Part shown: positions 23,182 through 25,728 of the stretch, in pieces | Position numbering within the stretch: the first letter of the stretch is position 1 | Layout: the number at the start of each line of letters is the position of its first letter | Virus record (IMG/VR): IMGVR_UViG_2681813233_000007 | Length of the DNA stretch: 64,000 bases | Reading direction: 5' to 3' (one strand) | Source: a virus | Lineage: Duplodnaviria > Heunggongvirae > Uroviricota > Caudoviricetes | The notes under the pieces: generated by a model | Told to the model about the DNA's origin: nothing | The model's database searches: none | The model's input: the letters and a program-made list of their open reading frames with translations, nothing else | Position numbers and translations under genes: made by a program

Positions 23182-23760
23182 ATGCAGAAACAGAGCTACT
23201 GGGAGAAACAGAGACAAAAAGCCATGCAAAGATTGGCTGACCCGGCCTGGCGAGAGGAACAAAGGGCAAAGCGCCTTCAACAAGCTCAACGCCAGCAGCA
23301 GCGAGCGAGAGAAAAAGCCGCATCGCCTGAATATCGGCAAAAGAGAATTGAAAAAGCAAAGCAATATGACCAGCGGAGAAAAGAGAAAGCTGTATCCGCT
23401 CCGTCCAAAAAAACACGCACGTCACGCGGCCTGAAGGGCAGATCACTCACAGCCGATGAACGCCGGATACAGACCGCTATCGGTACTCTCCCCTGCATTG
23501 CCTGCCATATTCACGGGCAACATAGCCCAGTGGTATCCCTGCACCATATCTTCGGGAGAACGGCAGAGAACGCGCATAAATATGTCCTCCCTTTGTGTAA
23601 ATGGCACCACCAGTACGCAGCGCCAGCCGAGGTCCGAGAACAATATCCCTGGCTGGTCCCTGTTCATGCTGATGGAAAAATAGGCGGAAAAGCAGATTTC
23701 ATACGGCACAATGCCGATGAAATGGCGTTGTATCAGATGGCAATTGAATTGATAAATTAG
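23182..23760 (+). CDS. ref: Ref-like HNH endonuclease (recombination enhancement function)
   Basis: Highly charged N-terminal half, C-terminal LPCIACHIHG...SLHHI...LCKWHHQYAAPAEVREQYPWLVPVHADG as in P1 Ref. Confidence 0.8.
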   Translation: MQKQSYWEKQRQKAMQRLADPAWREEQRAKRLQQAQRQQQRAREKAASPEYRQKRIEKAKQYDQRRKEKAVSAPSKKTRTSRGLKGRSLTADERRIQTAIGTLPCIACHIHGQHSPVVSLHHIFGRTAENAHKYVLPLCKWHHQYAAPAEVREQYPWLVPVHADGKIGGKADFIRHNADEMALYQMAIELIN

Positions 23761-24091
23761 TTTTCTAACATTTTAAGTTGAATTGGAAATTTCTCCGATG
23801 TACATTCACTACCGATTGGCACACCGGTCAACTTTTTGAGACAAACTGTTTAGTTTTTCGTATTATTGCCGCCGCCATACCTATGGCGGTGCAATATAGG
23901 TGGCTGAAAAGCCCCCGTTGACTCACGGTGTTCCAGCCTTTATTGCGCCGCCACCAGACCGTGGAACAGTCGATGGCGGCTCCGAAAGCAAGGAGTCACT
24001 ACACTATGAACAACTACAGTCTTTTCCCATCACTCGTCGTCCACCACTCACGCGATAATCTGCATTCTTTACTCGCGCTGGGGGTGTCAAA

Positions 24092-24258
24092 ATGACTGTT
24101 CGCTACCTCAACTTTCAAATCAAGAACATTACTGGCGGTTGCTATGACTGGTTTGTCACTCTCGGAAAAGAAGTGATCACCGGGAAGCTGGATGAAGTGA
24201 AAGCTAAAGCAATGGCCTACGCCTGCAAGCAAGCCCGGAAAAAATCCGCCAAAGCATA
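24092..24258 (+). CDS. small ORF (55 aa), coupled to a 27-codon upstream ORF at 24007..24094
   Basis: Own reading; below the 60-aa track cut-off; stop/start overlap TGATG-like. Confidence 0.3.
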
Positions 24259-24299
24259 AAATACTGACTGTTGCGCCCTGGCATTATCGTGGGGTATAT

Positions 24300-24386
24300 T
24301 TCTACGGCACCTTAGAAAAACGGGTGCCGGGATTGGAACCCCGGATAATGTCAAAGGCGACACAGACGCCGAAAGCGTCTTTTTTT
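24300..24386 (+). ncRNA. candidate small structured RNA ending in an intrinsic terminator (c4-like antisense regulator candidate)
   Basis: Hairpins GGCACC...GGTGCC and CCGGG...CCCGG, then GACGC-CGAAA-GCGTC + T7; near-complement of hairpin 2 at 24489-24500. Confidence 0.3.
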
Positions 24387-24571
24387 GTGTCATGCCATCG
24401 CACAGCCATACGTAGCGTTTAGCTCAGAGATCAATGGTAGTGCTGGCTGGGCTGCCGAAAGGCAGGCCGGTTCCCTTTGACGCCGGTAGTTCCAACCCAG
24501 TCAGTGCTACCGCCATTGAGATTGGAACCTCACGCGGTAGCTCCTTAACTTAGTCAAAGGAGGCTGCCAAT

Positions 24572-24787
24572 ATGGCTACTATCCCCACCCCAACTCATTC
24601 TGAATTTATCTGGCGTTTCTATTCCTGCCAAAAACACCTCTATATCTGCGTCATGGCTGCTACCGAAGCAGAAGCGCGCTCATGCATTCCCGAAGAACCC
24701 TGCATTTTTGCTGCTCGCTTCACTCTTGATGCGATGGAGATCCTCAATTACTGGAATCTGCCGATGAACTGCGTGGAGGTGCACTGA
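24572..24787 (+). CDS. small ORF coupled to antirepressor (icd-like position)
   Basis: AAGGAGG RBS; stop overlaps antirepressor ATG. Confidence 0.45.
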   Translation: MATIPTPTHSEFIWRFYSCQKHLYICVMAATEAEARSCIPEEPCIFAARFTLDAMEILNYWNLPMNCVEVH

Positions 24788-25728
24788 TGAATCTGTCCAT
24801 CTCTCAAAAAGCGACAATGACCAGTATTGAGATCGCGGAACTGGTAGGTAAGCGTCATGATAATGTGAAGCGTACCATTGAAGTATTAACTAAAGGTGGT
24901 GTCATTCAATTTCCTCAAATTGAGGAAATTGAAAATAAACAATCAGTTGGCCCTCGTCGATTTTCCAAGGCTTACATCTTTGAAGGCGAACAAGGCAAGC
25001 GTGACAGTATCATTGTCGTCGCACAGCTTTCTCCCGAATTTACCGCCCGGCTGGTGGACCGCTGGCGCGAACTGGAGAATGCCCGGGTACAGTTAAAATC
25101 AAAAGCCGAAATCCTAGCTGAAATGGCGCAAATGCATCTTGAGCATGAACGCCGGATCAACGCCGTTAATGCCCAGGTAGCCGAAGTATCGGCACAAGTG
25201 TCCAAAGTCGCTGAAACCGTCGAGCAAATCAAGAAAGGCAATATGCCGGAAGGCTACATTGGCTACCGCCAGCTGGCGGCGAAATGCGGCCTGACTGAAG
25301 CCAAATGTCGCAACCTTGTCAACGCTTACCGGATTCCCACCGATACACATGAGTTTTTGACCCCCGATGGCTTGCTTGCGCGACGCTCCATTGTGGCCCT
25401 GGCCCCCTTCCGGAAAGCCTTTAAGCAGGTGATGTCGGAGGCAGAACCACGCAATAAACGCTGGTATCATCCAAAGATGGGGATGTTTCAGGCAATCCAC
25501 CATCCTGTGCCTGAAAGTCCAAAGGCAAACCTGTCGTTGCATACCGCCAGAGAGAGGATTAAAACAGGGTATGCAATCGTATGCCGTCGAGCATCTTGGC
25601 CTGAAGGTGTATGGGTATGGCCCGAAGGTGGATCACGAAAGCACTGGCGCACTATCCGGGATGGGAAAATCCATGCGATTGATTTAGCTCCAGAGGATGT
25701 TGTTGCTACGGACTGGATTGTTAGTTAA
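24787..25728 (+). CDS. Rha-family antirepressor-like protein with C-terminal DUF2829-like domain
   Basis: N-terminal MTSIEIAELVGKRHDNVKRTIEVL (Rha-type); C-terminal IKTGYAIVCRRASWPEG ... VVATDWIVS. Confidence 0.75.
   Translation: MNLSISQKATMTSIEIAELVGKRHDNVKRTIEVLTKGGVIQFPQIEEIENKQSVGPRRFSKAYIFEGEQGKRDSIIVVAQLSPEFTARLVDRWRELENARVQLKSKAEILAEMAQMHLEHERRINAVNAQVAEVSAQVSKVAETVEQIKKGNMPEGYIGYRQLAAKCGLTEAKCRNLVNAYRIPTDTHEFLTPDGLLARRSIVALAPFRKAFKQVMSEAEPRNKRWYHPKMGMFQAIHHPVPESPKANLSLHTARERIKTGYAIVCRRASWPEGVWVWPEGGSRKHWRTIRDGKIHAIDLAPEDVVATDWIVS

Follow-up and report, generated by a model that had tools for sequence, protein, structure and literature searches.

In the P1 "immI" switch, c4 is a small processed RNA by which translation of icd and of the antirepressor gene is blocked; its 5' end is generated by RNase P, and the effect on icd is passed on to ant through lost translational coupling and Rho-dependent termination. 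Related logic is found in P4, where the CI RNA, acting through the sites seqA, seqB, and seqC, makes transcription of the replication operon stop early, and in P22, where the sar RNA lies on the opposite strand, is transcribed across the ant start, and lacks the c4 fold. The repression of Ant synthesis by c4 in P1 is documented (PMC8546580; PMC8201110), and c4 is counted among the substrates of RNase P (PMC11143913). In Gifsy-1, the short IsrK RNA stimulates translation of orf45 and of the antirepressor gene, both located downstream, more than 100-fold, with a translational effect of 139-fold as against a transcriptional effect of 8-fold, and a processed ~80-nt RNA is located 3' of IsrK (PMC4825925). 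Only for Gifsy-1 has IsrK been shown to bind Hfq and to activate translation of the antirepressor in trans (PMC4825925). For D6-like phage-plasmids, homologues of c4, icd, and the antirepressor gene were previously noted on pYU39_89 (PMC6799933).

Here we analyzed a stretch of 64,000 nucleotides ("the window"). A sequence search with positions 23700-24800 as query gave 100% identity with the E. coli plasmid pE2863-2 and 96.5% identity with phage D6. With a probability of roughly 0.85, we interpret this stretch as part of an E. coli plasmid prophage, D6-like and of the P1 family, carrying an immI-type immunity operon, with a smaller module of the same kind upstream (Table 1). Homology, folds, complementarities and their co-variation, and gene order were all observed directly in the present analysis. 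A preliminary description of this DNA had placed a c4-family antisense RNA and cis complementary sites ahead of icd-like and antirepressor genes, as in an immI-type operon, and this general idea was right: each of its four elements was found, none displaced by more than one base, but the roles assigned to them were inverted. The element is real, but of a kind already described, its design being P1/P7 c4-icd-ant combined with the IsrK of Gifsy-1. Its novelty is therefore low, and the sole mildly new points are a second c4 copy and the possible cross-talk of this copy with the main module.

Table 1 Features of the immunity region, with positions in the window.
Feature	Position	Strand	Basis or remark
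Terminator-like hairpin of ref	23814-23829		Terminator scan; directly upstream of 23838-23866
Promoter-like site GAGACA, 17 nt, TATTAT	23838-23866	+	Promoter scan; conservation
Leader palindrome CCGCCATA-CC-TATGGCGG	23872-23889	+	Right arm forms the 5' strand of the copy #2 outer stem
Second, divergent c4-like RNA (copy #2)	23879-23958	+	C4 and R1 models; fold; conservation
Candidate target a2* UGGAACA	23962-23968	+	Complementary to a'* UGUUCCA (23929-23935)
SD AAGGAG (23990-23995) and b2* GAGUCA (23993-23998)	23990-23998	+	b2* complementary to copy #2 hairpin-2 loop UGACUC (23919-23924)
29-aa ORF, remnant of Icd-like gene	24006-24095	+	Stop overlaps orf85 start (ATGA)
orf85, 55-aa protein	24092-24259	+	phrog_7786, E 3.6e-43
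Promoter-like site TTGCGC, 18 nt, TATATT	24271-24300	+	Read from sequence; start near 24307
IsrK-type leader / small RNA	24307-24386	+	Hairpin 1, a1 hairpin, b1, intrinsic terminator
a1, hairpin loop AUUGGAAC	24332-24339 (24331-24340 as repeat)	+	Leader fold; repeat search
b1, GUCAAAGG	24350-24357	+	Repeat search
Intrinsic terminator, stem and U-run	24364-24380 (unit end 24386)	+	Terminator scan; fold
c4 antisense RNA	24430-24517	+	Rfam C4, 77.1 bits; R1 model; fold; co-variation
c4 outer stem	24436-24451 / 24496-24511	+	Predicted fold
b', CCUUUGAC	24474-24481	+	Loop of c4 hairpin 2
a', GUUCCAA	24489-24495	+	Single-stranded joint of c4
a2 target GAUUGGAACC, exact copy of a1	24520-24529	+	Repeat search; covaries with a' and a1
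Linker GCGGUAGC	24534-24541	+	Complementary to c4 3' strand (24506-24513)
b2 target GUCAAAGG	24553-24560	+	Overlaps icd Shine-Dalgarno AAGGAGG (24557-24563)
icd-like gene, 71 aa	24572-24787	+	Annotation; PHROG profile; tblastn
Antirepressor gene, 313 aa	24787-25728	+	PHROG; Pfam; D6 annotation

The position of c4 was established by covariance models, a check that the preliminary description had itself proposed. The Rfam C4 model (RF01695) matched 24430-24517 over its full length (1-87) and above threshold (77.1 vs 45 bits, E 2.4e-13), and an independent model, R1, scored this site at 89.7 bits. The minimum-energy fold (-46.5 kcal/mol, z -5.0) has the shape required of the C4 family, in which a long outer stem closes off two hairpins together with a joint that is single-stranded. 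For the family structure, evaluated on 34 sequences, 98% of cells were paired, 15 of the 25 pairs displayed two-sided changes, and the observed level of co-variation was equalled in 0 of 500 shuffles. The surroundings are likewise those of a C4 family member: the upstream site set a1 and b1 (24331-40 and 24350-57) co-varies with a' and b', the same two elements are complementary to a2 and b2 downstream, b2 lying on the icd RBS, and icd and the antirepressor gene follow. No promoter-like site was found by the promoter scan between the terminator (24386) and c4 (24430), and c4 would therefore depend on read-through of the predicted terminator. In the RefSeq record, an "ash family protein" CDS is annotated in place of the ncRNA genes of the c4 region. 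A real gene was rejected as the primary reading of this ORF (24434-24553), which is contained within the C4 RNA plus a2 and is not preceded by a Shine-Dalgarno sequence; the CDS appears to be the translation of an RNA gene. D6-like phage-plasmids should be annotated with two ncRNA genes here, C4 and an IsrK-type a1b1 leader.

As first described, positions 24300-24386 are hairpin-rich and terminator-ended, with two hairpins followed by a terminator-like stem (24364-80) and a T-run. This unit had been read as a c4-like antisense repressor, and 24489-24500 as its mRNA target gating antirepressor translation. It does resemble a free-standing small RNA gene, with its promoter-like site and terminator, its sequence complements 24474-81 and 24489-98, and the homologous IsrK of Gifsy-1 acts in trans on the corresponding region (PMC4825925). 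However, the C4 models place c4 at 24430-24517, whereas 24300-24386 resembles IsrK and c4-a1b1 instead: Rfam isrK (RF01394) matched 24307-24385 at 62.7 bits (threshold 50), and Rfam c4-a1b1 (RF03163) reached 22.4 bits at 24294-24347, under its threshold of 46.7. The IsrK traits were also found, namely a position-conserved promoter-like site, a predicted terminator, and complementarity to a downstream RNA; in 82 distinct loci, the -35/-10 pair lies equally distant from hairpin 1, though the sequences differ. Both the position and the complementarity of an a1b1 unit are present, so the leader would work like a1b1 yet is filed under IsrK.

The complementarity noticed earlier between 24489-24500 and the second hairpin is real: 24489-24503 pairs with 24325-39 over 15 nt (80% complementary), the core GUUCCAA/UUGGAAC matching without exception. 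The site is nevertheless not an RBS-adjacent mRNA target, since it sits ~60 nt 5' of the icd SD, inside the highly structured C4 RNA, of which it is the a' recognition element. A second set of exact copies, GATTGGAACC at 24520-29 and GTCAAAGG at 24553-60, had been overlooked; this set adjoins the RBS, and its complement is found in c4 rather than in 24300-24386. Finally, the short RNA of Gifsy-1 activates translation rather than repressing it (PMC4825925), and we regard the reading of 24300-24386 as the repressor as very improbable. By analogy with Gifsy-1, 24300-24386 is probably a discrete small RNA pairing with 24474-24498, and as such it would be an anti-antisense activator or decoy rather than a c4-like repressor. 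The decoy step is uncertain because the Gifsy-1 authors propose that IsrK acts via refolding of the long mRNA and not via titration of a trans-acting c4, and because in their experiments IsrK remained toxic when the c4-like region was supplied in additional copies (PMC4825925).

Judged from the sequence, the sites gating translation are a2 (24520-29) and b2 (24553-60), and b2 overlaps an AAGGAGG from which the ATG of icd is 8 nt away. The icd-like gene matches phrog_1426 (E 1.7e-40), shares 61% identity with P1 Icd by tblastn, and is annotated in both RefSeq and D6 as an Icd-like cell-division inhibitor. Its stop overlaps (TGATG) the start of the antirepressor gene, the product of which matches phrog_63 "anti-repressor Ant" (E 1.4e-63) and carries an N-terminal Pfam Phage_pRha domain, the D6 counterpart being annotated as Ant. 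Predicted duplex energies were -15.2 kcal/mol for a'-a1, -8.8 for a'-a2, -12.9 for b'-b1, and -13.0 for b'-b2, and along the transcript the best predicted sites were a1 for a' and b1/b2 for b'. In the predicted fold of the unprocessed RNA, the linker at 24534-41 puts a2 in a hairpin loop; across 81 loci, the complementarity between linker and c4 3' strand is present in differing sequences (mean run 7.7 vs 5.2 in the control). The read-through RNA is predicted to fold as "structure A" of Gifsy-1.

From P1, P7, and Gifsy-1 we infer the processing of c4, its repression of the operon, and the decoy role of the leader. A promoter at ~24271-24300 would produce an RNA starting at ~24307, the first 80 nt of which would form the IsrK-type leader, with a1 in a hairpin loop, b1 single-stranded, and the intrinsic terminator at the end. 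A read-through transcript would continue through c4 (24430-24517), a2, b2 over the SD, icd, and ant, and c4 would be excised from this precursor. Excised c4 would then use its a' joint to pair with a2 and its b' loop to pair with b2, covering the icd RBS, on immI transcripts of its own plasmid as well as on those of incoming phages with the same a/b elements. With icd untranslated, the overlapping ant would not be expressed, so that the antirepressor would remain off and both lysogeny and immunity be maintained. The a1/b1 leader would bind the same c4 elements, a1 being predicted to bind more strongly than a2. In cis, it may keep the unprocessed RNA locked in an inactive fold; in trans, as a short terminated RNA, it may titrate c4 or open the structure and thus turn icd-ant on, an in-trans switching-on by the short RNA that has been shown for IsrK in Gifsy-1 (PMC4825925).

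This scheme places the primary effect on translation. Alternatively, the c4-like RNA could act mainly on transcription, as in P4, with pairing to a1/b1 and a2/b2 on the nascent RNA enforcing termination at 24364-86 or downstream, and the RBS block being secondary. An intrinsic terminator is indeed found 6 nt after b1, the P4 cI DNA is similar to the region (72% over 187 nt), and the possibility was raised by the Gifsy-1 authors, IsrK in trans having raised transcription 8-fold (PMC4825925). However, b2 overlaps the SD in every locus examined, which points to translational control. The operon also shares its icd-ant layout with P1, where repression of translation, reportedly described by Biere, Citron and Schuster in 1992, is the accepted primary step. 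Moreover, the 139-fold translational effect in Gifsy-1 is far above the 8-fold transcriptional one (PMC4825925). A mainly transcriptional action thus seems improbable to us, and translational repression by c4 is the reading retained here.

With immI of P1/P7 (a1 b1 - c4 - a2 b2 - icd - ant1/2), the locus shares the element order, the c4 fold, the structural positions of a' and b', the location of b2 on the icd SD, the overlap of icd with the antirepressor gene, and a replicon of the same phage family. A model search of P1 immI returned c4-a1b1 at 51 bits, a sub-threshold isrK match at the same position, and then C4. Unlike in P1, the antirepressor here is Rha/Ant-type and not Ant1/2, the leader scores as IsrK rather than c4-a1b1, an extra c4-like module lies upstream, and the window is without a P1-type C1 operator, the consensus ATTGCTCTAATAAATTT having no match within it at <=3 mismatches. 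The likeness to isrK-orf45-anrP of Gifsy-1 lies in an IsrK-type unit with promoter and presumably leaky terminator, followed by a complementary ~80-nt structured RNA and an antirepressor gene (PMC4825925), and in the same predicted inactive fold of the read-through RNA. There, the coupling "orf45" is read across the c4-like RNA, whereas here a separate icd would be the coupling ORF. A tandem isrK and C4 annotation is also present in Stx phage F039. With P4 immunity, the locus shares an antisense RNA, presumably processed, that belongs to the same Rfam family, and complementary sites up- and downstream in the same transcript; however, P4 has no icd-ant pair, while here the downstream site overlaps the RBS and c4 is followed by icd-ant genes and no replication operon. 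As in P22 immI (sar RNA / ant), an antisense RNA would limit antirepressor synthesis, but all elements here lie on one strand. A convergent antisense RNA of the sar type was considered and rejected: the lone minus-strand promoter-like hit (24631-24603, inside icd, 9/12 consensus match) is no better than chance, the promoter scan yielding sites no more numerous than in shuffled sequence, and nothing else in the region is sar-like. Taken together, the comparison ties Gifsy-1 IsrK, P1 a1b1/c4, and the P4 seqA/CI systems into a single design, and leaves the current understanding of such switches unchanged.

Across phages, the pairing elements vary in concert. Seven sequence types were distinguished among P1- and D6-like phages, P1 included, and between them a1/a'/a2 and b1/b'/b2 change jointly. 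For loci found by an a1-hairpin pattern, an exact a' and a2 for the locus's own a1 loop was present in 63 of 101, against a rate of 0.05% when loops were swapped between loci. The longest exact runs in 81 distinct loci averaged 7.4 for b'-b1 (control 4.7) and 8.0 for b'-b2 (control 4.9), and these loci comprised about 25 b specificities. Here, a is GGAAC and b is GUCAAAGG, both of which differ from phage D6 (main a element GAGAC, b GCAAAAGG) and from P1 (GACAG / GUUAGUG), and a/b combinations are shuffled among related phages. Immunity specificity is set by the a and b elements. Since these elements differ and shuffle among relatives, they could be read, short as they are, as an "immunity type" predicting coexistence or superinfection of P1/D6-like phage-plasmids; many such plasmids have resistance genes, so this typing could be of some practical use.

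The 800 bp preceding the icd-antirepressor pair had been taken as non-coding, but the region is not wholly so because orf85 (24092-24259), preceded by a 29-aa ORF, is a real and conserved 55-aa gene. Homologues of orf85 form 16 clusters, mostly of named E. coli or Salmonella proteins and several on ~90 kb contigs, and substitutions fall chiefly at third codon positions; orf85 matched no Pfam family, and the homologue search returned no relatives outside D6-like plasmids. The ATG of the 29-aa ORF also opens a 61-aa annotated Icd-like gene in D6-like plasmids of S. dysenteriae, E. fergusonii, and E. coli. When viral contigs were searched with the 61-aa protein of the S. dysenteriae plasmid, a single locus was found. 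In two variants (L032 and L033), the indels inside the 29-aa ORF are multiples of 3, and a 5-nt deletion precedes the ATG.

Further upstream, the palindrome had been reported at 23871-23888 and is present one base away, at 23872-23889. The GCCGCCA/TGGCGGC repeats were confirmed as well, with three copies within 110 bp (23871-77 and 23947-53 on the + strand, and as TGGCGGC at 23974-80) compared to 20 in 64 kb on both strands; a fourth related element, ATGGCGG, lies at 23883-89. Rather than being accessory sites of the 24300-24386 RNA, the palindrome and repeats make up the leader of a second c4-like RNA (copy #2) and its outer stem. This copy scored 40.2 bits with Rfam C4, under the threshold of 45 (E 3.4e-4 for the whole window), and 40.0 bits with R1, a model built without copy #2, for which it was the only match in the window besides main c4. 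Its fold has the c4 architecture (-36.2 kcal/mol, z -4.6), and in 9 variants 97.3% of cells are paired and every one-sided change keeps pairing; in these variants, no pair displayed two-sided changes by the co-variation criterion, and 220 of 500 shuffles equalled the score. Relatives of copy #2 were found by blastn in D6 only among phages, and in D6-like plasmids only among plasmids.

Downstream of copy #2, complementary matches of 7 nt (23962-68) and 6 nt (23993-98) are both invariant across variants, while the linker adjoining a2* (23970-88) is variable. The predicted duplex of a'* with a2* has an energy of -9.5 kcal/mol, and by duplex energy a'* pairs with main a1/a2 as well as it does with a2*, the pairing energies of the copy #2 sites being no better than those of cross-pairing with the main module; a local hairpin, GGCUCC/GGAGUC, is also predicted to close off the SD/b2* block. 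Upstream, every D6-like variant retains a GAGACAAA block and the T-A---T positions of the -10 hexamer, while the flanks diverge. The palindrome itself forms a predicted hairpin (-16.2 kcal/mol, z -3.6), with 7 of 8 pairs kept in 9/9 variants and one C:G to U:A double change, although 57 of 500 shuffles equalled the score, and it could be either an RNA hairpin or a DNA operator.

Copy #2, the palindrome, and the GCCGCCA repeats may be a decaying functionless duplicate, or the palindrome a protein operator at the orf85 transcript start, and we consider this a real possibility, if short of even odds. In addition to the sub-threshold score and lack of two-sided co-variation of copy #2, the icd behind it is truncated in the present lineage, and pSa1423-160k (L087) carries a clearly degraded copy #2. 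An operator would fit the location of the palindrome, at ~+1 to +17 of the promoter-like site, and the symmetry kept via one symmetric double change. A direct repeat at the ref end, TTGAATTGATAAATT / TTGAATTGGAAATTT (23744-58 and 23778-92), was tried separately as an operator and rejected, with 3 matches in the window vs 4.2 expected. Speaking against a relic are the conservation of the 80 nt of copy #2, far better than that of both flanks in 119 plasmids, stem changes that all keep pairing, a2* and b2*/SD blocks that are invariant on either side of a varying linker, and a small ORF whose frame and ATGA overlap with orf85 are preserved.

If copy #2 is functional, the promoter-like site at 23838-66 would drive the divergent c4-like RNA (23879-23958), the a'* and b'* elements of which would recognize the sites directly downstream, the second one on the SD of the icd remnant, itself translationally coupled to orf85. 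The D6-like immunity region would then be a two-tier antisense circuit, in which copy #2 gates the icd remnant and orf85 and also, by way of read-through, the transcription that enters the main module; we put this forward as a tentative and rather doubtful proposal. Both modules share the GGAAC "a" element here, so a functional copy #2 would be expected to cross-talk with main a1/a2. The two modules would thus be interdependent in this plasmid but independent in phage D6, where the main "a" element is GAGAC, and the tandem c4 modules found in viral contigs L100, L180, L187, and L117 would represent a general form of multi-specificity immunity arrays.

The antisense-RNA layout proposed in the preliminary description for the stretch before the antirepressor gene is real and its immI-type concept was right, but the parts had been swapped and the system is of an already known kind. 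The swap follows from the Rfam placements of IsrK and C4 (see table). The unit at 24300-24386 that had been read as the antisense RNA, whose two hairpins and terminator-like stem with a T-run were confirmed, is the upstream leader, and its supposed target, indeed complementary to the second hairpin (24489-24503), is element a' of the true c4 RNA. Likewise, the covariance-model search suggested as a check did find C4, but at 24430-24517 instead of 24300-24386. The supposed target at 24489-24500, described as lying beside the ribosome-binding site (RBS), is actually ~60 nt away from it, within a structured RNA, and the complementary elements at the RBS had been overlooked, namely the second exact copies GATTGGAACC (24520-29) and GTCAAAGG (24553-60). 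Nor are the 800 bp all non-coding, as they contain the conserved protein gene orf85 (24092-24259) and a preceding 29-aa ORF.

Features of the antirepressor region and their positions in the window
Feature	Position	Strand	Score or placement
ref	23182-23760		precedes the 0.8-kb stretch
0.8-kb stretch			between ref and the Icd-like gene
Promoter-like site	23838-66		directly upstream of copy #2
Copy #2 (C4-like match)	23879-23958		40.2 bits, sub-threshold (permissive scan); E 3.4e-4, whole window as search space
Promoter-like site TTGCGC, 18 nt, TATATT	24271-24300
IsrK	24307-24385		62.7 bits, threshold 50 (scan with all Rfam families)
a1 UUGGAAC	24331-40		loop of second IsrK hairpin
b1 GUCAAAGG	24350-57		single-stranded, 6 nt before terminator
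C4 antisense RNA	24430-24517		77.1 bits, threshold 45 (scan with all Rfam families)
b' CCUUUGAC	24474-81		hairpin 2 loop of c4
a' GUUCCAA	24489-95		8-nt joint of c4
Icd-like gene	24572-24787
Rha/Ant-type antirepressor, 313 aa	24787-25728	+

Across 23700-24800, the window shares 96.5% identity with phage D6, a P1-family plasmid prophage, and is identical (100%) to pE2863-2, a plasmid of E. coli. The start of ant overlaps the icd stop. In pE2863-2, PGAP labels the antirepressor an incomplete Rha-family pseudogene; since the ORF is intact and of the same length as D6 Ant, the pseudogene call is probably artefactual. A direct repeat, TTGAATTGATAAATT / TTGAATTGGAAATTT (23744-23758 and 23778-23792, +), spans the ref stop codon and is not enriched elsewhere in the 64-kb window. 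A search of all 64 kb allowing ≤3 mismatches gave no match to the P1 C1 operator consensus ATTGCTCTAATAAATTT, hence the C1 operators of D6-like phages must differ from those of P1.

The c4 RNA of the main module folds as a 16-bp outer stem around two hairpins (-46.5 kcal/mol, z -5.0). Downstream of it, a2 (24520-29) and b2 (24553-60) repeat the sequences of a1 and b1, and b2 lies partly over the Shine-Dalgarno of icd, AAGGAGG (24557-63), which is followed after 8 nt by the ATG. Predicted duplex energies are -15.2 (a1), -8.8 (a2), -12.9 (b1), and -13.0 kcal/mol (b2), and along the transcript no other sites are predicted to pair better with a' and b'. The 3' strand of the outer stem of c4 (24506-24513) has a further complement in the linker that separates a2 from b2 (24534-41), and the hairpin formed by these two strands is predicted to be an alternative fold, incompatible with that of c4, with a2 in its loop. 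RefSeq annotates no ncRNA here and places an "ash family protein" CDS at 24434-24553 (+), which matches Pfam PF10554 (Phage_ASH, 32 bits). This ORF covers only the C4 RNA and a2 and has no Shine-Dalgarno, and the Phage_ASH family looks like the translation of a conserved c4/CI RNA gene.

We then compared this arrangement across 80 loci collected via the Icd protein and 120 more via an a1-hairpin pattern. Covariation strongly supports the c4 fold: 98% of cells are paired, two-sided changes occur at 15 of the 25 pairs, and none of 500 shuffles did as well. In 63 of 101 distinct pattern matches, both a' and a2 fitted the locus's own a1 loop exactly, against 0.05% when loops were swapped between loci. 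For the b elements, of which ~25 different sequences occur, the longest exact run averaged 7.4 nt for b'-b1 (4.7 in mismatched locus pairs) and 8.0 nt for b'-b2 (4.9) over 81 distinct loci, and b2 abuts or overlaps the Shine-Dalgarno in every case. Complementarity between the linker and the c4 3' strand is a third co-varying feature, its sequences differing by phage (mean run 7.7 nt versus 5.2 in the control, 81 loci).

A -35/-10-like pair stands at a fixed spacing upstream of hairpin 1 in 82 of 82 distinct loci. No promoter-like site was found between the terminator and c4, so that c4 must arise by read-through. In the predicted fold of the read-through RNA (24307-24580; -111.4 kcal/mol, z -5.4), a1 and b1 pair in cis with a' and b', a2 lies in the loop of the c4-3'-strand/linker hairpin, and the Shine-Dalgarno is closed by CUCCUU (24541-46), reproducing the inactive "structure A" of Gifsy-1 (PMC4825925).

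The element order of the main module is that of P1 immI (a UUGACAG/CUGUCAA, b GUUAGUG/CACUAAC), where Rfam models give c4-a1b1 at 51 bits, isrK below threshold, and C4 at 68.8 bits. Order and matches together indicate that the IsrK unit is the same thing as the a1b1 leader of P1. In every respect testable on sequence, the main module agrees with the P1/P7 c4 family and IsrK, with the single exception that c4-a1b1, matched in the permissive scan over the first half of the IsrK region, scores below its threshold; the IsrK match on the same leader unit compensates for this. P4 CI is related but differs in output, and P22 sar is of unrelated design.

In P1, the c4 block falls on icd translation at b2, and ant is silenced through lost coupling and Rho-dependent termination. 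P1/P7 c4 is cut from the immI precursor, its 5' end by RNase P (PMC11143913), and in P1 it represses Ant synthesis in trans (PMC8546580, PMC8201110). In Gifsy-1, one IsrK promoter yields a short terminated RNA and a translationally silent read-through mRNA, a processed ~80-nt RNA complementary to IsrK (STnc1160) lies directly downstream, and short IsrK in trans raises antirepressor translation >100-fold (PMC4825925). By analogy, c4 would be the repressor, acting on a2 and b2, a step we propose with high confidence. The IsrK-type leader may serve as a cis lock on c4 and as a trans decoy or activator; our confidence in the decoy step is moderate, because the Gifsy-1 authors favour mRNA refolding and IsrK toxicity was not blunted by extra c4-like RNA (PMC4825925).

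Recognition elements differ between this plasmid (a = GGAAC, b = GUCAAAGG) and phage D6 (a = GAGAC, b = GCAAAAGG), and those of P1 differ from both. The prediction for this plasmid is therefore heteroimmunity at immI towards both D6 and P1. Heteroimmunity between P1 and P7 is explained by their differing a' and b' elements. P1-/D6-like phages comprise seven sequence types whose a1/a'/a2 and b1/b'/b2 sets co-change, sometimes by G-U pairs; the a and b types are also reshuffled among these phages, suggesting that immunity specificity is exchanged in modules.

Further upstream, the fold, conservation, and candidate targets of a second c4-like RNA (copy #2), together with an Icd-like remnant, point to a second, partly eroded c4-icd module. 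Copy #2 is predicted to fold like c4 (-36.2 kcal/mol, z -4.6), and was the sole additional match in the window to a model built from other c4 RNAs only (40.0 bits). It is confined to D6-like plasmids (119 PLSDB records) and is far better conserved than its flanks. The nine distinct variants have 97.3% of cells paired, and every one-sided change among them preserves pairing; no clean two-sided change occurs, and covariation support is therefore weak. Its joint UGUUCCA (23929-35) matches UGGAACA at 23962-68, and its hairpin-2 loop UGACUC (23919-24) matches GAGUCA (23993-98), on the Shine-Dalgarno AAGGAG of ATG 24006; both candidate target blocks are invariant and the intervening linker is variable. 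In predicted duplexes, its a'-type element pairs with the main a1/a2 as well as with its own site. ATG 24006 is the start of an Icd-like gene of 61 aa, with orf85 behind it, in S. dysenteriae (L086), E. fergusonii (L208), and one E. coli plasmid (L210). Of the two modules, these three have the upstream one only, with the c4-like copy, orf85, and the intact Icd-like gene between them; the isrK-c4-icd-ant cassette is missing altogether, and the next annotated forward-strand gene downstream is mat in L086 and L210. The window keeps a 29-aa remnant of the Icd-like gene, with the overlap with the orf85 start retained.

A terminator-like hairpin for ref lies upstream of the promoter-like site preceding copy #2. 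The palindrome CCGCCATA-CC-TATGGCGG previously described is present at 23872-23889, one base from where it had been placed, and GCCGCCA or its complement, also noted earlier, occurs three times in 110 bp (23871, 23947, 23974) versus 20 times in the entire 64 kb. The outer stem of copy #2 consists of the palindrome's right arm paired with the GCCGCCA element at 23947. All variants keep 7 of the 8 palindrome pairs, with one symmetric double change (not significant), and the palindrome may be an operator or, alternatively, a hairpin in the leader. Within orf85, 33 nt (24133-24165) are 76% complementary to the c4 3' half (24483-24515) and resemble its 5' half; this stretch is near-invariant, also in D6-like plasmids without the main c4, and could be what is left of a third c4 copy, or just reflect coding constraint. 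The double module of the window is not unique, as in other viral contigs two to five regularly spaced c4 RNAs stand in tandem on one strand: L100 (9709-11111) and L180 (10288-11034), both spaced by 656 nt, L117 (2518-3753), and L187 (2351-4997), where the spacing is ~850 nt and a Rha/Ant-like ORF of ~283 aa follows each c4.
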